Below are positions 8,372 to 64,000 of a DNA stretch of 64,000 nucleotides, piece after piece. Source of the stretch: Pocillopora damicornis (taxonomy: Eukaryota); NCBI RefSeq assembly GCF_003704095.1, contig NW_020845872.1, forward strand, positions 1-64,000, given 5' to 3'. Numbering within the stretch: the stretch's first letter is position 1; each line of letters opens with the position of its first letter. The position numbers and the translations under genes were made by a program. A model generated the notes under the pieces. It saw nothing but the letters and a program-made list of their open reading frames with translations, was not told where the DNA came from and made no database searches.

Positions 8372-9542
8372 TCAGAATACGGTAAATTGAGTACTTTCAA
8401 AATGATATTTTGGTATACAAATCACTTTGTTACCCTTGAAACGTTATACTTCGGTGAGAAAACTTTATACTTGTAGATGATGTAAAGCAGTGTTGCGTTA
8501 TATGTCACTTGGTTTGTCACGCGATGCCCGCTCTTTTTCACGCGGCTCACCTTTATGCTGTGTTACATTGAGAGGGCCAGGCTCGAATAATTTGGATGTT
8601 TTGGTTACTACTAGATAAAATACGCGTACGAAGAATTCAGAGTGGGGGGATGGTGGCATAAGGAGAGTCTACAACTCCAATTTTCTCAGTCCATGACCTT
8701 TTCCTGATCAATCGCTTTTGCAAGCATCACGTGATGTCCCGTGACAGAAATGTTTTCGCTGTGACTAAGGAGAGTTCATCGTTGACTTGTCTTTTTATTT
8801 CTCAGTACAATTTTTTAGTCCAATTGTATTTCTTTCCCTTTATTAATCATTTATTAGAAAAATGCGTTCGATTTCTAGTAAAACAGTAATTTTGATTGTA
8901 CTGATTGCCCAGAAATAGTCAGGGAAAGAGGACTTGTGATGTGCTCAGTTTCAGGCTGTGTCATGAACCTTATCGCAAGGAACCAAAAGTAAGAATAGGC
9001 AGACTTTTTATCTGATTGGTCGAGATAGTCAAGCGCCCAATCACAGAACGGGGAAAATCAATACTAAAGCAATCCAGATGAACTTTCGACAGTGAATTGA
9101 GAAACCTTTAATACACAGTTTGAAAAAAAAATTATTTGAGAGTAGACACCCATGTGAACTGTAACTTATTTACAAATATTTATATTAGAAAATCTTCAAG
9201 AGATTTTACATGCAAAGTAGACGATGCCCCAAAGATAGGTCAGCTATGGGTCACGCACACTTAAATGATTTAAAGGCGATTTCTTTCCGCGCATAAAAAT
9301 CAAAGTGTCACTTCGGGAAAAGATTTCGAACAAGTTTGCACGAATAACATGGGGGTGAAGAAAGTCGAAAAAGTATTGGAACTTCTGGAAGTCGTGCGTC
9401 GATATGAGTATGATTTACTGAGTTACTGATACAAGCCAATCAGTAGATCAGTTTGAAGAGCCTGCTGTTTAGTGACAATATGAAACTTAACGATCAGCTT
9501 CGATTCCTTACTTCTCGACGGTTTTGTTTGAACTGATAACAA

Positions 9543-48600: not shown

Positions 48601-51600
48601 TCTTAAGGCCTCAAACTTTTCGACGAAGAAATGCTCGTTTAAATATAAAATCTTAACGGTAGTAAAATGAGATTTTCAACTCAGTCATTGGAACCAAATT
48701 GTATCTCAGCAAATCAGATGCAAAACTAAAAATAATCGCGACTTGGTCACTGGCGTTTCCTTGTGCCTTAAGAAGTTTTCTTGTTTACGCATGGAGTTTT
48801 CAATGGCCAGTGACAAAGTTAACCTTTGTTTTGATTTGGTTTGGTTTTCGACTCTTAATTGAAAACTGCTCCATCGTGGAAGGGAAATTTATAAGCGTAT
48901 TCTCTATCTATATTTGTTTGTATTTTTAGGTCATCAAGGCTAGACGGTGTGAGCCACAGACTTGCCAACACCTTGTAGTAAGTCCTCGAGATCACAGCAG
49001 AGAACACAGTAAAGGTAACCTAGGTAAGGGCTTGAGCACTTTCACTCCAAACATCTCAATGTCTATTCTTCTTACTGTCTTCTATGAGCCAACTAACTAA
49101 GCCGACTACTCTTAGGTTCATTAAATACACAATTCTTTTGAAATTTTGTTCCTCTAGATGTGGAATTATCCGTTCCTCCAAGATTTTCCTTGGGCAGTTC
49201 GAAGTCAAGTGCTCGCATGTCAAACGAATTGGTTACTTACATACTTGCGAAAAGATATTCAGAATTAGGAAGGTTTGAGGGATTTTCTAAATAATCTGAT
49301 TTTCCAAGAAGTCTGAAATTCATTTTTCGTTTATAGACGGCATTTATCGTCACAATATATCATTATTGTTATTAGATATAATTTTCCGTAGCTGGACGTC
49401 ATTTATCGTCACTAAATATTATTTACCTTCTCTACACGTTATTTGCCTTCGCTTGACATTATTAATGGTCATTACATGTTATTTCCCGTCAGTATACGTT
49501 GTTTATCATCGTTTGCCGCCACTAGACATTATTAATCGTCGGTACCCATCATTTTTCGTTTGTAGACATCATTTGCCGTCTCTAGACATTATTTACCCAC
49601 ACTACACGTTATTTGCCTTCGCTAAACATCATTTACTGTTACTTCATGTTATTGATCGCCGGTCAACGTCATTTTCCGTCTTTACATGTTACTTACCGTC
49701 GTTATACGTCTTTACCTTTACTAAGAATCATTTATCGACAGCACACATTTTCTGTCACTTGACATAATTCACAGTCATCAGACAACTTCTCGTCACTCGG
49801 CAAAATTTACCTTTACCTCAATCTGTCGATTTTACTTGGTTAATCAACACCAACGTACCCACAGTTCTCGTATGAAAGTAACTTCCTCGTGCGTTTTTTA
49901 TGGTCAACAGTATCTAAATACATACATATCTTTTGCTAGGTTCGAGGAAGCAGCGACGAACTTTCTGGAGTTGCTGGTCAATATTGTAGAAGTGCGCACC
50001 TCCAACTTTGTAAGAATGTCATAAATTTCTCGTTCTCACTGATATTTTTGTTTGAAATGCGTCAGTTTTAAACCAGCTTATTTATTCCGGTACATTTTCA
50101 GCCGCAAGCTCATAAAAATGGTATAATCTCGGTTCTCATCTCCTTATTTCGCAAATGTTTTCAGATTTAGGCTTTTTTTCATCTCGATGTAAGGCATGCC
50201 CAGTTCTTGTTAAAAATACGATCAACAATCATTGTAACACTTCTTCATTCTTAGCGGCCGAACGTCCAAAATCTTCCCAGTCCTACCGAGTTGTATAAAA
50301 ATTGTGCATTTGCGCTGTCTAAAGCTGGGAGACATGAAGACGCGGTGACAATTTGTGATAAAGTTCTTACTTCTATCGAGCATGGAGAACCTACTGAACA
50401 AGGTATGTAATTGGTGAATTGGGCTTGTGATAGGTTTTCTCTGCAAAAGAGGTTTACTGAGACAGACAAATATGACAAGTGTTACCTTTACAATTTTCAT
50501 TTCCAACTGCACCCATGTCAGTATTTGGAGATCTTTCGCCTACATAATTTCATCTTCGTCACTGCACTTTGAAAATAGCGAACTGGTCTTCCGCCGACCA
50601 GTTGTGGCTAGAGAAAATGTTTTGTTTATTTGAAGTGACTCATATTTTCGATTTATGATAGCTAGCAGCTTTAAGCCCGAACTGTGTACTTTGTAAAAAC
50701 TTTCTTTGTCTACTCCCCTCTAATTCCAGTGTCTGCTGCTAGGAGCTATCAGAGGCACTGCCAGCCTGTACTCCACCCCAACCCCACCCCTGAATGAAAG
50801 TTTGTCTGTCACAGGTTACTCCAGGAATTGACTCTACTTTGTTTTTGCCTTCAAAGGTCACAACGATGAAATAAGAGTCAACGATAAAGCTCCTAAGAAA
50901 AGGCTGCGATCAGATGACGGGGAAGATTATTTGAGCACCTTCAATAGCGAAACGGTGTCTGACAACATACAAATGCTTATGTTGAAATCAGAGTCATTGG
51001 TTCATCTTCAAAAACCACTAGAGGCCTTGCAGTCTCTCAACAGGTATTGTGAATTCTTCTTTAAACGTATGCGACGTAATTATATTTCGTCTTGCTTCGA
51101 TGCAGCGTACTTGGAGAAAACAGTCAAGTTTTAGTGACCGTGAACTACATTAAGTAGAAGAACTGAAGGGAGACATCTACCGTGAGTGAAAGTGATCCTC
51201 GCAGTAATGTGCACTACTTGGGCAGTAGTGAAAGTAAGGCCTGAAAAAAATTCAGGCCCGTACGGGATTTGAACCCATGACCTCTGCGATACCGGTGCAG
51301 CGCTCTACCAACTGAGCTAACAAGCCAACTGGGAGCTGGTCATTATGTTGGTTCCAAATAAACCCGTGAAGTGATGAATAAACAGTTAAGAATATATGAA
51401 AGTCACTATTTTCACTACTGCCCAAGTAGTGCACATTATTGTGAGGATCACTTTCACTCACGTCTTTATCCGCAGTTTAAATATACGACTTTCATATATT
51501 CTTAACTGTTGAGACATCTACCGTTAAATCGTTGTATAGGCCTCCAGGCCCATTCTTTAGGCATTCTTGTAATCAAAACCACATACGGTATGACAGATTA

Positions 51601-54272
51601 TCATGATAATGCGCCGAAGAACGTCATGAACCAATTAGAAGAACCTTTGGTAACAAGCGTTGGATGTTTGCGAATAGTTTCTGATGTTATTAATTGCTGA
51701 TAAAACAAAAATTATCCTGACGGGTTAGACAGGGTCCACAAGCATTGTATTCTTAGGAGCAATCACAGAACTCTGCCATAGAAAGAAAAGCTTCTCATCT
51801 AACTTGTGCAATACACTTGCCAAAATTATCTTAGGGTACTGGTCGCACTGGAAGATGTCCAGTTAGTAAAAAATCAAGAAAGAATCCAAGGCCACAAGGA
51901 TAATGATGGACAACAGAGGAAAAGGAGAAAGCTCGACTGCGGTAAGTTGATAAGACTTGTTGCAAAAATACGGGACGCGGTAAGTGCCAACTGAACTGAA
52001 GTCGTTCATGTACCTCACGTTTGACGCGCAGTTGAATGTGAAGTAATCTAAGAACCTCTGTTGGTCGACAGAGTGATAGTTGTTGAGTCTGTTGAATGTA
52101 TATGGTCCTAGTTAAGTTTTCAGCGAAACCTTTTCTGTTAATCCTTTGAATTTTTTTTCTTTTATCTCTTAAAAGGAGACAATGTTTCGTGTGAGGAGCA
52201 AAGCGAAACTGACAACTCAAGAAGGCCTGCTAGAGTAAAGGTGAGTATACAATATTTGTTTAGCAAGGTGAGTCAAACTTTATTCGTAGAAGGTAACTAT
52301 TTGGCGTCATCTAGGTTAACACTGACTTTGCCTCCCTGGACAACTGCAAACGGCCAAATAATGGTTTGTTAAAGGTGCCTTTCAGAAATTCGAATACACA
52401 TTAGCACAGGCCTGCATGCTTGACACGCGCATGAAAAACTCGCGGAAAGCAAAGTTAATTAGAATGTTTGAGTTCGCTTATTGTCCGCCTATTCTAGTTT
52501 TTTCTCGTTACTTTTGATTGCTTTTTTTTGCATCATTTCTCATGAAATATATTGTACGTGTCGTGGTAATATGCCAGATCATGAAAGAATTTAAATGTTT
52601 GTGTCAGATATGTAGTGCCACTATTTGGACCGTGCGATCGACCTACTGCCTGCCTGGCTGTCTTTATGTTACTGTGTGTGTTTTCTTTCCTTTCAGGTCC
52701 AAGCGTACAATCAGAAGGCTTCTATTCTAGATGAACTGGGTCAGACCCATGATGCCTTGCATCAGTTGCATCTCAGTTTGGAGTGTTTAGCAGGTATTTT
52801 GTATAACCAGCATCAGGTGTGATGTTAAGTGTTTACTTTTGGCCTTTTCTTTAACGGTAGTGAGAATATGTGGTAAACAGAGGTATTGATGGAGTGAACA
52901 ATAATGGCTTCACAAATGGCGCCAGCTCTGACCAGAGTCTCACGAGCACCGTACTTCCCCATATCGAACCGGATAAACTTTCAGTATATTAAAAGAAAAG
53001 TTCAGTGCATATTACAGAGGTGGAGAGGGAAAGTCTGCTATACTGATGAGGCCTGGTAAAGCTAAAACGGTTCTCCGTGGCTGTTAAAATCTTGATTGAT
53101 TTTGATTTTGATCTCGTTCTTGGGCTCCTGAGTCTCGAACATGAACGCCTTATTGCGTGTTTTGTGGTCGCAGCTAGCCAACCCCAATAAGAGCGCTATT
53201 CGATTGAGTGTCGGCATGGTACAGAGAGCATAGTAACTTCCTTTCCTTTGAAAGGAAAGGAAAATTTGAACGCAGACTGAATTCGTTTAATCGACCGCGG
53301 GAAATTGCAAGAAACCAAGTCGCGACTTTTCCTTATTAGTCACAGAGCGCAGTAAAGGAAAAGCAATACAATCACGGATTTCTTTCAAAACTCAATTGGA
53401 AAATGCTCTAACTTTCCCACACTACAACTTTCCTTATTCTTTCAATTCGTTAGAACATCCTGAGACAGTTTATAAGCATACGCGGTTGCTCCTGAAGCTT
53501 GGTTCAAAGAAAGAAGCAGCACACAACTGGCTTCAATTCCGAGGTGTCCTTCTTCACTCGCACAAAGGGGACCTGGATTCCCTTTGGAAAGTACTCCAGT
53601 AAGCTTTTCACTCCTGAATCCTTTGATTATTTTATCCAGCAAGGGTACGGAATTGAAGAGTGAGTCCGTTGCGTAGTGTAGTGATTGTTTGAGAGGAAGA
53701 GATGGGACAGAGGTTTTTCCTTTAAACGAATTGTCGATAATACTGGTTTTCATGTGTTGGGCAAATCATAGACGATCGAGGATTTCACTGGTTCACGACC
53801 GTCTCAGATTTGTCCGACAAATGAAAACTCCGAAACCGTAGAGATCCCCGATTGTCTGGGATGGTCGGCGACAAATCGGGAACGTTACTATTTTTCCGAC
53901 GCGTCCCAGATTTCTGTGATGATCGGCGATCACTTCAAACTTCAATTTTTGCCGTTGGGGACGTTTTAGCTCGCAACCAGTCCTCTAGTTGCCTAGCTCT
54001 AGTACCCCCGTGTGACAAATAAAATTTAATATCCAAAGAATCTTGGACAAACATCTGACCATCTCTTGAAATATCAGCAAAATCTGGGTCGGTCGAGAAA
54101 CAGTGATAAATGAATGACAAAAAATTTTTTGTTTTTCAACAGTTCATCAACAACAAAGTTTCTGGAAAGTGACGTCAGCAACGAGCAAGTCCGAGAACTA
54201 GACGAGTTGATCTTGAATTGGTTGAGCGAGAATAAAGAGCAAAATGTCTTTTATCCACATGCCAGGGTTTAA
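42654..54272 (+). CDS. FANCG: Fanconi anemia group G-like TPR protein, about 19-20 exons (start exon tentative; alternative ATG near 44691)
   Basis: LDIKEWVIENDLLVNRLK and LERVQGLPP..YEQAVVYN resemble the FANCG N-terminus. TPR-like exons at 47974-48100, 48226-48373, 50254-50402, 50857-51042, 52697-52793 and 53454-53598. Last exon 54143-54272. Confidence 0.72.
43226..43545. mobile_element. Hairpin-type non-autonomous repeat in intron
   Basis: Inverted arms AACAATTATTCCA..TGGGTATGAG..ATAGTTAAC and GTTGGCTAT..CTCATATCCAA..TGGAATAATTGTT. Confidence 0.6.
49320..49810. repeat. Highly degenerate short-period tandem repeat (GACATCATTTACCGTC-like)
   Basis: Recurrent ACAT/ACGT-YATTT-CCGTC variants. 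This explains the low-quality ORF 49366-49767. Confidence 0.6.
51184..51510 (-). mobile_element. tRNA-containing short retro-element with 14-bp target-site duplication
   Basis: GAGACATCTACCGT at 51170-51183 and 51511-51524; internal tRNA-like unit and two pairs of inverted repeats. Confidence 0.85.
51254..51326 (-). tRNA. tRNA-like (pseudo-Thr, GGT) unit inside the repeat
   Basis: A box TAGCTCAGTTGG, B box GGTTCAAATCC, pairing acceptor stem GGCTTGT/ACGGGCC, loop CCGGTAT (C instead of U33), T7 terminator just downstream. Confidence 0.55.
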
Positions 54273-54719
54273 AACTCTATTCGAGCGAATGTTTTCATAG
54301 ATTTAAGAAACGTTCAGTTACGTCGTTAACAAAGATGCCATCTTCTAGCGTTGAAGATTATACCAAATTTGATGGATTGCTGTCAGGGCTACAGTGCATT
54401 TTGAAACAAAGATAAAGTTTAAGCCCGTTCTACAAGTCCTTCTGTAGGATTTGCACGTCTCAGTGGTTCATAAAGAATGAGAGACAGTGTTTCCGTTTAC
54501 CACGAAGAGTAGTTATGCTGTTGAGTGTTTGTTATCGTTTCTGTTGTGATAACTCAAATTATTTATTAGTACAAAGGCGATACAAGACCCAATAAAAATC
54601 ATAACTTCAAACTTGTGTTCTGCCGAGGGTTTTAACAATCATGATATAAGAAACATTATCAAAGTCTTTCTTTGTATAGGAATTTTGATTACTTGGCAAA
54701 TTTTACGTATCATAAACAG

Positions 54720-54960
54720 CCCAATCAGAATTCATGAAAGATCGCCTCTTTCTCGGAATCCTAAATTCCGAGAATGTGATTGAGTTTCCTAGAAACGTGA
54801 GTAACGCAGGAGCCCGTTACTTTGGTAATGGGCCCCTGACTGACGTCAATGTTTAATATGCCTCGATAACCAATCAGCTTGCAGATTAATCGCTTCACAG
54901 TAAGGTCATTCTGTCATGTAACTTGTTTTCCGCTCTAGAGTGAAAACTTTCTCAGAAATC
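54720..54960 (+). promoter_or_regulatory. TENT paralog A upstream region: 4 GAS (TTC-N3-GAA) sites, CRE, CCAAT boxes
   Basis: TTCTCGGAA 54750, TTCCGAGAA 54766, TTCCTAGAA 54786, TTCTCAGAA 54949; TGACGTCA 54841; CCAATCAG 54721 and 54870. Confidence 0.65.
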
Positions 54961-55096
54961 TGTCGTGTGTTTCACGCAGTTAGTAGTTAACATTTGGTTT
55001 GGTTGAAAGTCAACAACTAAAGGAATTAGGCAGGCTGCCGCATTAAGCTCTAATTTCGTCACTGCATGGTTTACGATATTAGCAGGTTGAACGTTC

Positions 55097-57587
55097 ATGG
55101 CTAGTTTCAACTTCAGCTCGAGAGGTGATCATTATCATCAACTAAGCGCACAAATTCAGCAAAAGTTTCAGGATAATCGTCAAACGAGTGAAGTATTTGA
55201 TCGGAAGAATCGATGGAGAAAGGAAATTGAAGACTTAGTGAAGACCCTTTACCCGTCATGTCGACTCGTTCTTTCCGGCTCGTCCGCAAACGGGTTTGGC
55301 AGCATTCATAGTGATATCGACCTGGTTTTGTGCTTTGAAGGGGCAGCAGTGACTGGACCTTCCATGTTGAGGAGAATAGAGTCGCTTTTTGCGAGTAACC
55401 GTCGTCGTTTTCAAACAGAGGTAGTACCACACCTTATGTGAGTTGCATAATTTTTATAAATAATACGAGCAATCAGGAAAATATCCGCTCGTATAATGCA
55501 TAAAACCATGAGATAAGGGACTTGTTATTCCCCTGCCATTTCATTTTATAATATTTTGACTTCCAGTTTTTTTAAATACATACGGTCTAATCTTGTGCAC
55601 TGTATGGATCACATAACGCGTGTGTGAAAGACGAAGGCAACACAAACGAAACCATTAAGAGTTCTTGATGACTTATAAAAGAAACTGTTGCCCCTAATAG
55701 TTCCATGCACGAAATTTCGAGCCTAAAACACGGAAACAAATAAAAGATTGAATCGTTTAGCCGGGGGCCATTTTGTTACTCCGCTTTCAGTCCGCATTTT
55801 TGCCCCGTGCCATCGCATATTTTGCGGGTTCTATGGTCCTTATTTGGTGAAATGGTGTAACTGTCGAAGAGTATGTAATAGTATTTGAGCACAGCTTGAA
55901 TGTCCGCGACTAAGACAATCAGATTCCTACGTAAGATATGCATGACAAACTAGTACGTCGTGTCTTTTCCCGCGTTTTGAAACACTTTAGATTATGATTT
56001 AATTTTTTGTTTGTGGGTTTCCTCTATAAAGCATCAAAAATGACTCAGGGGGAGATCAAAGAAAAAAACTGGTTCTTCTCTTTCGTCATATTGATCAGAA
56101 TTTTTAATTCGAAGCTTCCTCAACGTGTCTTTCACTTCGGTTTCTACCGATCCCGAGGTTAGATTGTGCTTTAATCTTTAACCTAATTGGCATACGCAAG
56201 AGAATATCAAAAGTTGATGTTCTCTCGGCAAACGATATAATTTTTATTAAAACCAATTTCAAGATGGTGTCAGCGCCGAGTGAGAGATATTTTTGATTGA
56301 AAAAAAAAAACTAGACAAGTAAACATTTGATATGCAGCAGTAAATTTTTTTAAAGTCAACTTTGAATTTTGAACAATCCCCAGGTGATTCCAAACGCACG
56401 AGTTCCTATCATCAAGCTCAAAGATAGGGAGAAATCAATTGAAACTGATATCAGTGTGGAAAATTGGACCAGTGTGAGAAACGCCTTCGTTCTAAAATGT
56501 TACTCCGAGTGTGACACAAGGGTGAGACCGCTGGTCATGGTCATCAAACTGTGGGCTCAACGTGCAGGAATCACCGATGCAAAACTCAAAAGACTTGCAG
56601 GTACGAAATCTGCCGATTGTTAAAAAAGTGGCGGATTTGAGGTTGAATAAAGGGGGTTAATTTCTAGAGAAAATTTTGGTGCTGCGTGGGGGGATCTTTC
56701 AAGACAATTTGGTGTCATCAACCGAATTGACATTATAAACTGGCCACCGTAAAGAGTTTCTTTTGCTAACGCTTGCAACGTCAGCTATATTAAACTCTTA
56801 ACGGTGGTCAATTTACATTATCAACGCAGTTGATAAAACCACATGATCTGATGAAAGGTTGACTGGTTTGACTCGTTTACAAGCTCAATAATACAAATAA
56901 AAAAAAAGTCCCTTCATTTTAGTTTAGTTATGTGTAGCTTTTCACATATCACGATGCGAGTAACATATGACTGACTCTTACAAGACAGGCAGACATGTAA
57001 AGCTTGTAACTTAGACCAAAACGCGTAAGAGAGAGAAAAATGAAAATTTACAGAAACTAAACAGGAAAAAAGTATAAACTGGTCTACCTTTGAGCTGCTA
57101 GGATCTCCTTTTATATGTCGATTCTTCTTAATATTTAGGTTTCGCCGTGGTTCTTTTGGTAATCCATTATCTTCAAGCAGGATGCTCCCCTGCTGTTGTG
57201 CCTGCCTTGCAACAAATGTTCCCTGCGGTCTTCCAAGCTTCTAACAGTGTGATCATTGACAAGCTTACCTCAGATATTCCTGCTGAAATACAAGCCTTCA
57301 GTTCCGATAACAAGCAGAGTCTTGGTGAGCTTCTGGTTGGCTTCTTTCAGTACTTCTCCACCTTTAACTGGAGTAGAACCATGTCGATTCGTTCTGGAAA
57401 TACCCGACCGACTTCGACGTACGACAAGATATGGCGGGGACCTTACATTCGCCTAGAAGATCCCTCAGATGGGGGTAACGTCACCAGATCCGTGTATGAT
57501 TCCTACGAGTTCTCACGCATAAAGAGTGCGTTCAGTAGCGCTCTCTCGAAGTTGAGAAGCAATCCGTCTTTGGAAGAAATCTTGTAG
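55097..57587 (+). CDS. Cid1/GLD-2-family terminal nucleotidyltransferase, paralog A, 329 aa (exons 55097-55420, 56384-56600, 57139-57587)
   Basis: SGSSANGFGSIHSDIDL, ARVPIIKL, third Asp in ETDISV, D.RVRPLV..IKLWAQ, PAP-associated domain SLGELLVGFFQYF..IRLEDP. Confidence 0.92.
56648..56842. mobile_element. Decayed copy of the palindromic Penelope-derived element
   Basis: Homologous to 31523-31769 (TAAAGGGGTTAA..TGGTGCT; CCACCGTAAAGAG..CTCTTAACGGTGG); hammerhead core partly deleted. Confidence 0.6.
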
Positions 57588-58137
57588 GAATCCGAAGAAG
57601 AAACTGACGTAGATCCCTACATTGTTCCAACTAATTTCAATTTTTGCCTTACACAGTAAAAACTCGCTAAAAAACCCTAATTTTGCTATTAGAAACTAAA
57701 TAAGTTCTTCACTAGAGCCATTTTCGTGTTCAGAAAACTAGAGAAAAATAAGGTTACTGAAACTGCTTAGAGTTACAATGTGAAAACTTTAGATGTCATT
57801 TACAGGAATAATATGGGAGAATGACATTGTGAATTGAATGGAAGAATGGAAAAAGAAAAGAAAAGAGAAGAAAAAACGATAGAGAAATGGTTGAAGCTGC
57901 TGGGGCTCGAACTATAGATCTTCGGAATTAACAGGAGTACGCACTCACTATCTATTGTGCTAGGTACGCAAAGCGTACATAAGTATTGTATCAAAATACA
58001 TTTGATACACATTTTATACATGGATCTTTTCTATGAATTTCCCACCCTGTCCCTAGCCCGTGAATTGACCAGTATACAAACTCTGTTCTAACCAAGTCCT
58101 CCTTTTGACAAATTTTGGCATCGACGAAAGCTGTTTC

Positions 58138-58274
58138 AATAACCTGTTCATTAACCTGTTCATTAAACTGTTCATTAACTTGTTCATTAACCTGTTCATT
58201 AACCTGTTCATTAACCTGTTCATTAACCTGTTCATTAACCTGTTCATTAACCTGTTCATTAACCTTTTCATTAA
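58138..58274. repeat. 12-bp tandem repeat (TTAACCTGTTCA) x about 11
   Basis: Direct inspection; no spacers. Confidence 0.95.
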
Positions 58275-59299: not shown

Positions 59300-60827
59300 T
59301 TAAAAAATGTCTTGTAGAGATGCCTTCTGTTCCAGCTGAGTTGAGGCAGATTGAAAGGCATTCTTTATGCGTGTGAATTCGCTCGAGTTATACACGCCCC
59401 TTGTGACATTTCCTTCGTCTGTCGGATCTTCCAGCTTAATATAGGGCCCACTCCAAACTCTTCCATACCGTGAAGTTGGCTGAGTATTTCCCATTCGAAC
59501 AGATATGGTTTTTTTCCAATCAAAAGAGGAGTAGTACTTGAAAAACTCGATCAGCAACTCACCAACGTTTTGCGTGTTCTTGGATTTGTGTGACTTTACT
59601 TGGGGAGGAGCGCTGCCGGTGAGTTTTGATATGACATCATTTTCTGTTGATCGGAAGAGCTCTGGGAAATCTTTTTGGAGCGAGGGGAGGACAGGGGGAG
59701 AACATCCGGCTTGTAGGTAATTAATGACAAGTAGCACAACTGCAAAACCTGTGGACCAAAAAATTGAGCTATAGTGAGATATTAAACCTTTACCATGGAA
59801 TAATTAAATCAAGCACAAGTTTTAATGAAAAAATATTGCAAAATACCAGGGATTTAATAGTCTTCATCCTGACTTCCACAATAAAAGGTACATTTCCTAC
59901 CAAATTAGGATGCAGCCTCACCCTCCCCCCTGCCCTCTTCTTGGTATTAGAAGGGCACTTACGAAATTGGTAAGAAACGTAGTCGGTGAAGAAAGAAATA
60001 AACTTATTACGAGGAAAATTATAAAGCCGTCCGTGGTTTCTTAGAGGTAATTCGATAAATTTTCCAACAATGAATACAAGTTCATCTATATCGGTGTAAA
60101 AAGCATAACGAATAGAAAAATATCTTTCTCAGGCATTACCAGCAAGTCGGTGTAATCTTGCGTTGGTAATCTCAGCCTTCTGAGCCCACAGTCTGATAAT
60201 GACAACCAGAGGTTTCACTCTTGGATCGCACTCGGAGTAACATTTCAAAAGGAAAGCGTTGCGAACATTTGCCCAGTTGTTGACGGAGATGTCAGATTCA
60301 AAAGACTTTTCCTTGTCTTTGAGTTTTATGATTGGAATTCTAGCGTCGGTGATCACCTGCAAAAGTTATGTTAGCCTTCGTAAATGTTAAAACACTTCGT
60401 TACACATAGCTTCACTTTAATTAATATTTAATTAAAGTTTGCATAATTAATCTTTTTCAAAAAGGCTTTCTCAGCGAGACAGTGATATTGTCTCAATAGA
60501 TTGAAAAGACCTCACCCTTGTTTCAAAGCGTCTGGGTGTCCTGGTGAAAAGCGATTCTATTCTTCTTAACATGTAAGTTTCTGCATCTTCCCTGCTTTTA
60601 GCAGTCAAAATGAGATCGATGTCGCTATCAGTGCTTCCGAATCCGTTGGCAGAAGACCCGCACAACACAAGGCGACAGCTAGGATAAAGCTCTTGGATAA
60701 TAAGCTCCATTTCCCGCCGCCATGAGTCCTTTTGATCATAAATTTTTGGCGTTTGTTGGTTTGCTGAAAATTTCTCTTGAATCTGACAGCTCAATTGAGC
60801 GTCTCTATCAGTGTTTTCATTAGCCAT
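59300..60827 (-). CDS. Cid1/GLD-2-family terminal nucleotidyltransferase, paralog B, 325 aa (exons 60827-60516, 60356-60140, 59748-59300)
   Basis: CGSSANGFGSTDSDIDL, ARIPIIKL, ESDISV, IKLEDP. Intron positions and exon 2/3 sizes (217, 449) are identical to paralog A. Confidence 0.92.
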
Positions 60828-60914: not shown

Positions 60915-61015
60915 TACTTCGACGAAGTTTCAAACGTTTTCTAAGAAAACGCAATATCATCCGTAAACAATAAAATTCCCAGAAATGCCGCGCATTGTTA
61001 ATTGTGATTGGTCCA
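60915..61015 (-). promoter_or_regulatory. TENT paralog B upstream region: 3 GAS (TTC-N3-GAA) sites and a CCAAT box
   Basis: TTCGACGAA 60918, TTCTAAGAA 60939, TTCCCAGAA 60976; ATTGG near 61007. Confidence 0.6.
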
Positions 61016-61346
61016 TTACTATGTAAATTCTGACATCCTGTTTACAGAGTGTTCTAGAGTTTAATTCATTACTCGAACTCACCCGCTGAAAATGCTTAAT
61101 AAATTCAGGTTATTGTTCTTTACCCGCTCTGACATTAGCAAAATAATTAAAATAATTTAGGTAACGATTAGGAATATCAATTTTAAAAGTATTCAGTCAA
61201 TGAGTCTGAAACAGTACGAGGAAATATGACATCCTTTTTGGTGGTTTTAACGTGCTGTGGCTGTCACCATATCCTCAATTGCGAACAGTTTTACATGGAA
61301 GAATAACACTAGACATTCTAAACAACTCTATCCGTCATCAGAGATA

Positions 61347-61660
61347 CAGTGGAATCTGTATTAAGCGGTCGCTTGTTAAAGTCCCGAAATTTTTCCTCTC
61401 TAAATACGTCAATTTTCACTTTAATCTCTCGAGTCAAATTAGTATTCCATGTTTATCTCCCGAAATCGATGCTAGCACTGTGAATTCAAGTATCCTCAAT
61501 ACTTTGTAGGTCATCTTTCTACTATGGACTGTTAGGACAAATGTGACACACGAACATCACACAAGCTATTTGCGGATCAACTTGTATTGAGTCCGTAAAC
61601 CTGTAATAAACGGTCACCTGGCCATTCCCTTAGGGAAACCGCTTAGTACAGGTTCGACTG
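61347..61660. mobile_element. Tc1/mariner-pogo-type MITE with TA target-site duplication
   Basis: TA|CAGTGGAATCTGTATTAAGCGG ... CCGCTTAGTACAGGTTCGACTG|TA. Confidence 0.8.
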
Positions 61661-62464
61661 TAACTTTCATCGAATATTTAAATCTTACTCGGATAAAATG
61701 TTTATTACTGAGAATTAGAAAATCAGTTTCGAACTCTTCATTCTTAATTAACGCTGCGAAATTTGAAAGAACGAAAGTTGAATCAAGACCTTCACTTTGA
61801 TTATCGTTTGGTTTGCTGTCTGGTGTTTGATAAACGACTTTTTTTTTACAAACCTATTAACTATGATATTTAAGATTAACAAAAGTCAAATTGTGCGCTG
61901 CACCACAATGAATTGCCCAGACTTTATTCGTCTCCCTTATGTAATCATAGGAACTTACTCAAGTTACTTCAGTGAGGTCAGACATACCAAATACAAGTGA
62001 AGAGGCACTGGCCCGCTTCAACTAAACACGTTTACTCAGCATTTACAAAAAGATACTAAAGTAAGACGGAAAAATTAATTATAGAGATACAACGAGACAA
62101 AACTTACCAAATGATGAGGGAAATACTGGAAGGACGACACAATCGGGATTTAGAGAGAAGGAAAAAAACACAAACTGCTAGAAGGGGCGTGAAACATGAA
62201 GTATATGGGGCGGCGGGATTTACATAAGGCAAAACAGTAGTGAAAAAACGAAAAGAGTAAGCGTAAATTAATGGGTGCTAGATAAATAACATATGTGATT
62301 ATATTATATAATATATAGCAACAAGACTGTTGCTATATATTACAAAATTTCAATTGAATTAATCATAATAATATGAATAGCAATTATGTTTCGAGTCGAA
62401 ATTGATTTCGTTGTGATTGAGTAGTTTATCTCAAAGTGTACTTATTTATCTGATGAGATGTAAA

Positions 62465-64000
62465 TCAAAGAATACTTTCCAAAGACGAATTTCTATTCAA
62501 ATTGTTTGACGCAGTCTTGAAAGACTGTTTAATGCGCCTGGCTTCATACTCGTCAAACACGGCTCTGGTTACATTTCCTCCGTCCGTGGGGTCCTCGATT
62601 CTGATTTTAGGCCCCCGCCAAACCTTAGAATGCATTTTGGTGGGTTCCGTGTTTCCCGTACGAACAGAAATGGTTTCTGCCCACTGGAAAGCAGAATAAT
62701 ACCGGAAAAACGCCATTAACAATTCTCCAAGACTCTTCTCGTTTTTTGACTTGTACGTCTGGATTTGAAGTGGAATTTCATCGGTTAGTTGGTGAATTAC
62801 TTCGTTTTTTGACGTGTCTTTGATAAGTTCTGGGAAGTCTTTATGCAGTACAGGCAGGACTGGGGGAGCACAACCGGCTTGTAGGAAGTGGATGACCATG
62901 AGAACGATAGCAAAACCTAGACATGATGGAAAGTGGCAAGCAGCTAAATTTATTAAAGCATCACAGTTACATGCAGTAAGCATAACTACACATTCGAAGC
63001 GGGGGAATCCCAGAAGCGGCACAGGTTTATACGAGAGATCTTAATAGTCCACATGTCTCCTCACACATAGGCCCCCAATGCTAATAAACTTGTATCAATC
63101 AGGTTATAAGTTCCAACTGCTGTCTTTATAAAAAACAAATAACAATTAAAAAAGTCTCCAAGTTTCCGTGATAAAGGTTAATTCAAGTTCTTGTCAGGAG
63201 TCGCGGGTAGCGTTAGAGTATAGTTTGAATTACTCCAAGATACAACACAATACCCCCTTCGCTTACAGTCTTCTCATCCTTCTCTTCCGACCTTCAACAA
63301 TGTTAAATGCTTCTAGATACATTACCTGGAAGCCTCTTAAACTTGGCTCCGATAATTTGAGCCTTTTTCGCCCATAGTTTGATCACAATTGTCAACGGCT
63401 TCACTCTTAAGTCACACTCAGAGTAGCATTTTAATAGGAAGGCGTTCGTCAAGCTGCTCGAATTCTCCAAAGTGATGTCCGTTTCAAACGAGTTCTCTTT
63501 ATCCTTGAGGATAATTATGGGGTCTTTGGCATTTGAAACAACCTGAAAGTAGTTACAATTACTCTCTGTTAACTACGCCTTAGTTCTGTGGCCGTTTTAT
63601 AGATGTGCCATGTTCAATTATGTAGAATTACACTTTCTCGTTCTTTCAACGCTCTTTTACCCTTCTCTCCCCCCTCTCAAGGCAAAAATTGTAGATTGCA
63701 TTTTGTTTACTATATACAAACAGGAGCAGCTGGTTCAAACTGCTTCTTTTTTCTAATTGGATCACCAGGAGATCTACAATCTTCCGCCCAAATATCGTTC
63801 GATCCAAACAGCCACCATGAATGAGTATTTCTGGATTATACCAGAACGTGATATATAAAAAACAAACAGTGGATGCGGATATTTATGCGTGGCAATCATC
63901 TCAAGCTAAAAGAGATACCAAATTAAATTATCAATTGGTATAACAAACACTGATACCTCTGTTTCAAAGCGGCGAGGCTTGCGACTGAAAAGCGATTCGA
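62465..64000 (-). CDS. Cid1/GLD-2-family terminal nucleotidyltransferase, paralog C, 5'-partial (exons >64000-63957, 63542-63326, 62916-62465)
   Basis: ESLFSRKPRRFETE|VVSNAKDPIIILKDKENSFETDITLE..IKLWAKK..RLPG|FAIVLMVIHFLQ..IRIEDPTDGGNV; same intron positions as A and B. Confidence 0.88.

Follow-up and report, generated by a model that had tools for sequence, protein, structure and literature searches.

Three GLD2-like genes and the gene A transcript

Three GLD2-like genes are clustered in the window, by which we mean the whole 64-kb stretch of coral DNA analysed. The DNA is that of a stony coral of Pocillopora type, proteins B and C clustering with named Pocillopora proteins. Each gene has three coding exons, A reading along the plus strand and the other two, B and C, along the minus strand (Table 1). 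All six splice joints of A, B and C are present in RNA contigs drawn from four studies; the depth of these contigs was not taken as a measure of expression. The gene A contigs of three studies start at 54901, 54904 and 54906, and a fourth extends to 54651 at low depth. A 5' UTR intron, suggested by splice-like motifs, was rejected as the RNA contigs run continuously from 54901 to 55418. The end of the upstream gene restricts the intergenic space to approximately 290 bp and also serves as a marker of synteny with one of the orthologous loci described below (L051). The public annotations P0013 and P0064 appear to fuse the tandem paralogues into proteins of 971 and 664 aa, in contrast to the separate spliced genes seen in the RNA contigs. 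By eye, a 12-bp tandem array was observed between genes A and B (58130-58260) and a tRNA-like repeat in an intron of the upstream gene (51180-51520).

Table 1 Features of the gene A promoter and the GLD2-like gene cluster, in window coordinates
Feature	Position	Strand	Remarks
Upstream gene, last exon and 3' UTR	54142..54611	+	AATAAA at 54591; RNA contigs end by 54611
Upstream CCAAT	54721..54725	+	not kept as CCAATC in orthologues
GAS site 1, TTCTCGGAA	54750..54758	.	counterpart TTCTAGGAA in both L051 and L071
GAS site 2, TTCCGAGAA	54766..54774	.	TTCCGGGAA in L051, TTCTGAGAA in L071
GAS site 3, TTCCTAGAA	54786..54794	.	gap to site 2 of 11/10/11 bp in the three species
CRE, TGACGTCA	54841..54848	.	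orthologues have only TGACG half-sites, at other positions
CCAATC box	54870..54875	+	between GAS sites 3 and 4; conserved in all three species
Gene A RNA contig 5' ends	54901..54906	+	three studies; weak hint of transcription start
GAS site 4, TTCTCAGAA	54949..54957	.	TTCTGAGAA in L051, TTCTTAGAA in L071
Gene A coding exon 1 (GLD2-like nucleotidyltransferase, 329 aa)	55097..55420	+	splice joint in RNA contigs
Gene A coding exon 2	56384..56600	+	RNA contigs
Gene A coding exon 3	57139..57587	+	PAP_assoc; nucleotide recognition motif without His
Gene B (GLD2-like, 325 aa)	59300..60827	-	exons 60827-60516, 60356-60140, 59748-59300
Paralogue B promoter	60918..60984	-	three GAS (two strict) after CCAAT; both strict sites kept in ortholog L074
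Gene C (GLD2-like, 334 aa)	62465..64000	-	start at contig position 64292, just outside the window; promoter with three GAS, two strict

The gene A protein consists of a Pol-beta palm with the D-x-D...D pattern and a PAP-associated domain. The top match of the family profile in the structural database is mammalian GLD2 (6lbk, E 1e-74), ahead of TUT4/7. Its recognition motif aligns to that of GLD2, the histidine insertion of TUT4/7 being absent. In uridylyltransferases, an active-site histidine confers the preference for UTP (PMC4931116). Because this histidine is absent, the gene A enzyme is predicted to add adenosines.

Four GAS sites at the gene A promoter

An earlier note on this DNA had claimed four TTC-N3-GAA (GAS) palindromes in about 210 bp upstream of gene A, the first three within 45 bp. 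All four are present (Table 1) and together span 208 bp, and the crowding of sites 1-3 into 45 bp was borne out. The sites are promoter-proximal, at -347 to -148 from the gene A ATG. Sites 1-3 probably lie approximately 105-150 bp before the probable transcription start, while site 4 is probably located within the 5' UTR, approximately 45 bp from its beginning. A stricter form of the motif, TTCYNRGAA, is matched by 4/4 of these sites and by 8/8 in the two orthologous promoters; we refer to it below as strict and to TTC-N3-GAA as loose. The note also listed a CRE and two CCAAT boxes. The CRE and the CCAAT at 54870 are indeed there, but the CCAAT at 54721 falls just outside the range given. A 10-bp inverted repeat comprises sites 1 and 2, in line with the suggestion that they are inverted copies of each other and may not be independent; this holds for the present genome, but the two sites are not inverted copies in either orthologue, where both are still found.

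Conservation in distant coral orthologues

A scan of metagenome contigs yielded 38 loci, two of which are distinct and provide an A-type exon 1 together with upstream DNA (L051 and L071; L052 duplicates L051). Exon 1 identity to the Stylophora A exon is 74% for L051 and 67% for L071. At four-fold synonymous positions of exon 1, identity to the window falls to 9/35 (26%) and 9/26 (35%), respectively, so that neutral DNA is at or near saturation over these distances. L051 is syntenic with the window, since the last exon of the gene upstream of A is found there as well.

Both orthologous promoters keep 4/4 strict sites in unchanged order, and the GAS sites thus came through the comparison of orthologous promoters that had been proposed as a means of refuting them. 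A common layout is seen in the window, L051 and L071: three GAS sites, followed by CCAATC, GGTCAY and TTTTCYG, and then the fourth GAS. The gaps between successive sites are 7/11/154 bp in the window, 25/10/104 bp in L051 and 27/11/120 bp in L071. TTC and GAA are invariant at N3 spacing in all 12 orthologous sites, with variation confined to the centres. Automatic alignment pairs some of the sites differently from this motif-anchored reading, with sites 1 and 4 and the CCAAT staying in register. Of the other elements, the second CCAAT keeps its place across the three promoters, whereas the CRE and the first CCAAT do not. Conservation of the GAS sites in L051 and L071 exceeds the neutral expectation.

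Statistical support and repeat tests

The background of TTC-N3-GAA was previously put at 3e-4 per position, which proved too low: unselected DNA (74.2 kb) contains 40 loose sites, or 5.4e-4 per base, and 11 strict sites, or 1.5e-4 per base. The 64-kb window as a whole has no excess of the loose motif (39 sites, with 31.9 +/- 5.1 expected; 13/100 shuffles reach 39). When 39 sites are placed randomly in 64 kb, the chance of three in 45 bp is 0.008 and that of four in 208 bp is 0.009. The strong excess that had been claimed is therefore only moderately unlikely by chance (p ~0.008) when the window is taken alone, with stronger support coming from outside it. A second triple is found at 60918-60984, and two triples, each within 70 bp, have p = 0.0002 under the same random placement, and 0-1 of 150 Markov simulations reach either three sites in 45 bp or four in 208 bp. 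Four strict sites were reached in 0/20,000 dinucleotide shuffles of the 450-bp promoter, and likewise in 0/20,000 for each orthologue. Among 576 spaced-palindrome patterns scanned, TTC-N3-GAA alone occurs more than twice in each of the three promoters.

A segment dispersed over many loci would have offered a trivial explanation, but a single match to 54650-55100 was found in the 234-Mb genome, and no dispersed repeat or MITE was detected there by a search that skips very common words. Other response elements were looked for with the patterns GAAA-N1/2-GAAA (ISRE), GGGRNNYYCC (kB) and alternating nGAAn (heat-shock), none of which matched in the 600 bp upstream of A, B, C, D, L051, L071 and L074. 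Among 15 promoters, an ISRE-like match was found in SOCS only.

GAS sites at paralogues B, C and D

The motif is also common to the promoters of the other paralogues, which the earlier note had overlooked, along with its presence at many immune genes. In the 600 bp next to the ATG, A has four strict sites and B, C and D have two each, where approximately 0.09 would be expected. The gene C promoter has the same three sites as that of B, split by a hairpin insertion of ~135 bp. This element, between GAS1 and GAS2 (G000:C2507:64465-64600, L002), resembles a coral MITE. Paralogue D, located on contig C2974, has TTCCGGGAA twice, 14 bp apart, immediately before the ATG. Six relatives of paralogue D with upstream sequence carry 2, 2, 2, 1, 1 and 0 loose sites, the last having only 82 bases upstream. 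A tree of 26 rows, with its Stylophora relative standing in for the D of this genome, unites A, B and C in a single coral group and places the proteins of Nematostella and Actinia with D (99/97). As a separate observation, long 3' UTR contigs of gene C cross the gene B promoter (60977-62918), one of them ending at the first GAS of B; read-through from gene C could affect B.

Conservation, the occurrence of the motif at four paralogues and the single-copy nature of the segment make a well-supported case, at the level of sequence, that these are putative GAS-type STAT sites.

GAS clusters across the genome

Clusters of the motif were counted genome-wide and compared with a reversed control. Loose triples show no excess (84 versus 87), and strict triples fall below the control (20 matches versus 45). 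The 20 strict matches occur at 16 loci, four of them tandem or low-complexity, and the 45 control matches at 14 loci, 13 of which are satellite-like and one other, as judged by eye. Strict pairs number 306, compared with 164 in the control.

Six of the 11 other non-satellite strict triples are located at a gene start, respectively that of viperin, an RdRP, a Mab-21 gene (cGLR-type), a DEDDh exonuclease, a BTB-TLDc gene and one unidentified ORF. No gene start could be recognised at the remaining five, of which one lies 3' of an ETS gene, another is intergenic and three are ambiguous. Four further loci from the loose list comprise SOCS, an NB-ARC-TPR gene and two ambiguous cases. Some of the cluster promoters are bidirectional (RdRP with HMG-CoA reductase, NB-ARC with a FAD-binding gene), and the target gene is therefore not certain. 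Of the first 50 pair loci listed, 17 were selected by eye; two of these are in coding exons, seven have no identified start nearby, one is in an IRF intron and seven precede genes (ZNFX1, JAK, a GT4 glycosyltransferase, a TMEM121-like gene, DUF4470, BEN and DNA polymerase B).

DnaJ genes were used as a control set, consisting of the 23 of 30 fetched loci that matched the domain start. These contain four strict sites in 23 kb, with a pair at 1/23 genes. In one control gene (L116:1100-1600, G000:C2022), a CCAAT box is preceded by a GAS triple that includes an 11-bp gap, and this gene may be a genuine STAT target. Among immune genes selected beforehand, a pair within the upstream 1 kb was found at 0/4 IRF genes (one has an intronic pair) and at 0/10 GBP loci, most of the GBP matches not being first exons; the IRF and GBP counts are evidence against a universal regulon. 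The OAS region has single GAS sites only.

Several of the clusters have features of their own. The region upstream of viperin (L031:4940-6100) contains a tandem-duplicated module of at least ~180 bp, each copy with a GAS pair or a decayed form thereof, and nine strict sites are found there in 1.2 kb. Upstream of ZNFX1, four strict GAS lie in 150 bp (L089:4990-5145). Duplicated BTB-TLDc genes each have GAS clusters, and a second GAS triple is located ~3 kb upstream of SOCS (L027:4890-4940 and 8436-8650; L035:6269-6325). A gene with ubiquitin-like and TerD domains lies 1.7 kb from a strict triple (L032:6721-7804).

STAT, JAK and the tetramer question

One STAT locus was found, with exons on C1014. 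The DNA-binding and linker exons are nearest to STAT5 and STAT6, an SH2 exon is present, and the protein has the STAT5/6-type histidine. The phosphotyrosine was looked for in this locus and not located. While the PF02864 profile found the STAT gene, that of the STAT N-domain (PF02865) had no match in the genome, which is probably due to the splitting of the domain by short exons. The first exon aligns weakly with the STAT1 N-domain (E 0.14), the Trp being kept and its neighbours changed. The 1 kb upstream of STAT (G000:C1014:71985-73000, L087/L088) contains seven loose GAS, four of them strict, which suggests that STAT regulates itself. A JAK gene on C14, with FERM, SH2, pseudokinase-like and kinase exons (G000:C14:344000-368300; L158, L165, L166), has eight strict GAS in the 2.5 kb upstream of the FERM exon.

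According to PMC4990345, the GAS consensus is TTCNNNGAA and the gaps of STAT5 tetramer sites peak at 11-12 bp. Closely spaced GAS pairs had been pointed out at this promoter as the substrate of cooperative STAT tetramers. This idea fared less well than the sites themselves: the gap between sites 2 and 3 (11/10/11 bp) is near the STAT5 peak, but a corresponding peak is missing from a sample of genome pairs and the N-domain match is weak. Only 1/38 non-repeat pairs has a gap of 11 bp and none a gap of 10 or 12 bp, in a small sample (the non-repeat pairs from the first 50 listed) of which about half are chance pairs. Cooperative tetramer binding at sites 2-3 is thus a possibility that we rate as less likely than not.

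Induction of homologues in Nematostella

A GLD2 of Nematostella is strongly induced by cGAMP, with log2 values of 5.6 in polyps and 4.7 in embryos (PMC8713801), and, among the rows listed for PMC8476169, has log2 values of 5.2 and 4.4 after poly(I:C). Viperin, Rdrp1, SOCS2, STAT, ZNFX1 and a Mab-21 gene are also cGAMP-induced in these tables, and an ETS gene of ELF type is induced as well. From the shared name only, we infer that the induced GLD2 is the Nematostella protein of our tree, which groups with paralogue D and not with A. The searched supplements of PMC13319465, outside its large data files, have no GLD2 row, and the available parts of PMC8713801, PMC8476169 and PMC13319465 name no promoter element.

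Knockdown results are given in PMC8713801. Those for STAT and IRF are negative there, with no significant loss of the cGAMP response upon nvSTAT knockdown. Eight genes are listed as reduced in the nvSTAT table, including STAT and SOCS2; GLD2 is absent from it, and from the NF-kB-knockdown table too. The fall of SOCS2 accords with the GAS cluster at coral SOCS. However, the knockdown lowered STAT approximately 3.7-fold, compared with an 8.9-fold induction, and knockdown of STING changed only two genes, lowering only STING itself (PMC8713801). The test therefore had little power. As they stand, these data give no support for STAT control of GLD2.

Interpretation

On the evidence of DNA sequence, we regard the segment as the conserved promoter of a GLD2-like gene, and consider it likely that this promoter would respond to STAT and be immune-inducible via putative STAT-dimer sites. 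It is likely to be one example of a GAS-cluster signature common to coral antiviral and JAK-STAT feedback genes. In the proposed mechanism, a nucleic-acid signal, acting through cGLR-STING or RLR and perhaps via a secreted factor, would lead to JAK activation. Phosphorylated STAT dimers would then bind the clustered GAS sites and switch on gene A as part of an antiviral, interferon-like response, with an NF-Y-type factor presumably on the conserved CCAAT. Induction of STAT and JAK would provide positive feedback and that of SOCS negative feedback. The GLD2-like enzyme would add adenosine to RNA, candidate targets being host immune mRNAs, small RNAs and viral RNA. More tentatively, and with slightly less than even confidence, we propose that the one coral STAT acts directly on GAS clusters, without ISRE, in a regulon that would comprise feedback genes of the pathway itself (STAT, JAK, SOCS), sensors (a cGLR-type Mab-21 gene, ZNFX1) and effectors (viperin, RdRP), with the minimal GLD2-like enzymes as a hitherto undescribed family of antiviral effectors.

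It is also conceivable, but in our view unlikely, that STAT binds these sites for basal or cell-type expression (immune, gastrodermal) or in response to another cytokine-like signal, with acute induction driven through IRF or NF-kB elsewhere. Such a role would fit the persistence of nearly all cGAMP induction after nvSTAT knockdown, the lack of clusters upstream of IRF and GBP genes, and the presence of clusters at DnaJ, TMEM121-like, BEN and DUF4470 genes, which bear no immune label. It is harder to reconcile with the absence of ISRE and kB patterns from these promoters, and in Nematostella cGAMP induces homologues of those cluster genes that are best identified. The knockdown itself was partial, and GLD2 is missing from the NF-kB-knockdown table as well.

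A somewhat lower probability still is assigned to the palindrome being read by another protein, such as a BTB zinc-finger repressor like BCL6/Ken or an ETS factor on the GGAA half. Site 3, both here and in L051, is TTCCTAGAA, which we take to be the BCL6 consensus, and the Nematostella ETS gene of ELF type mentioned above is induced. The STAT5/6-type histidine of the coral STAT points the same way, as this residue favours N4 spacing in STAT6. Against this, TTC, GAA and the N3 spacing are kept at all 12 sites while the centre varies, at 7/12 of them GGAA or TTCC is missing from one or both sides, and clusters are found at STAT, JAK and SOCS themselves. STAT5, moreover, shares the histidine and binds TTCNNNGAA (PMC4990345).

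That the cluster is a functionless product of chance, local inversion or a repeat remnant is highly improbable: the 10-bp inverted repeat of sites 1-2, the window p of ~0.008 and the satellite nature of some genome triples would allow it, but it is largely refuted by conservation, with four strict sites in each distant orthologue (0/20,000 shuffles each), a segment that is single in the genome and the motif at all paralogues.

Cnidarians induce many homologues of interferon-stimulated genes without interferon, and direct STAT control through GAS clusters would address the question of which transcription factor is responsible. If true, GAS-driven antiviral transcription would predate both the cnidarian-bilaterian split and interferon. 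The four-site promoter and the short gene list provide exact bases to mutate and named loci at which to look for STAT occupancy. GLD2-like tailing enzymes become candidate immune effectors, and GAS clusters a putative sequence marker for immune-inducible coral genes. Our literature search, which left most subscription papers outside its reach, returned no paper on GAS elements in cnidarian immune promoters or on GLD2 as a cnidarian immune gene.

Comparison with known systems

Control by STAT through GAS elements is well known in bilaterians. The vertebrate GAS promoters bound by STAT1/3/5 dimers resemble those described here in the TTC-N3-GAA motif (consensus in PMC4990345), in the start-proximal clusters and in their presence at STAT, SOCS and JAK genes. 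In contrast, the coral clusters belong to an animal without interferon (PMC8713801), in which we detected a single STAT locus whose exons are STAT5/6-like. A further difference is that the coral clusters occur without ISRE at viperin and ZNFX1, and also at RdRP. Vertebrates drive viperin and ZNFX1 mainly through ISRE/ISGF3 and are not known to have an RdRP.

In the case of STAT5 tetramer sites (PMC4990345), the likeness lies in the 11/10/11 bp gap between sites 2 and 3 and in gaps of 12 and 10 bp to a loose third site in B and C. Coral pairs differ in having no 11-12 peak (38 sampled), the N-domain exon has diverged, and cooperativity is putative here.

The coral enzymes share with GLD2/TENT2 the match to 6lbk, the same Pfam domains and a recognition motif without the histidine. 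They differ in being proteins of ~330 aa that comprise the catalytic core only and in having four paralogues in this genome, and the anthozoan set shares ~35% identity with the single bilaterian GLD2 of the tree. GLD2 is not known as an interferon-induced gene.

A further parallel is the cGAMP/poly(I:C) response of Nematostella. While PMC8713801 reports STAT knockdown to be without effect there, the response includes induced homologues of the coral cluster genes GLD2, viperin, Rdrp1, SOCS2, STAT, ZNFX1 and Mab-21 (PMC8713801, PMC8476169, PMC13319465).
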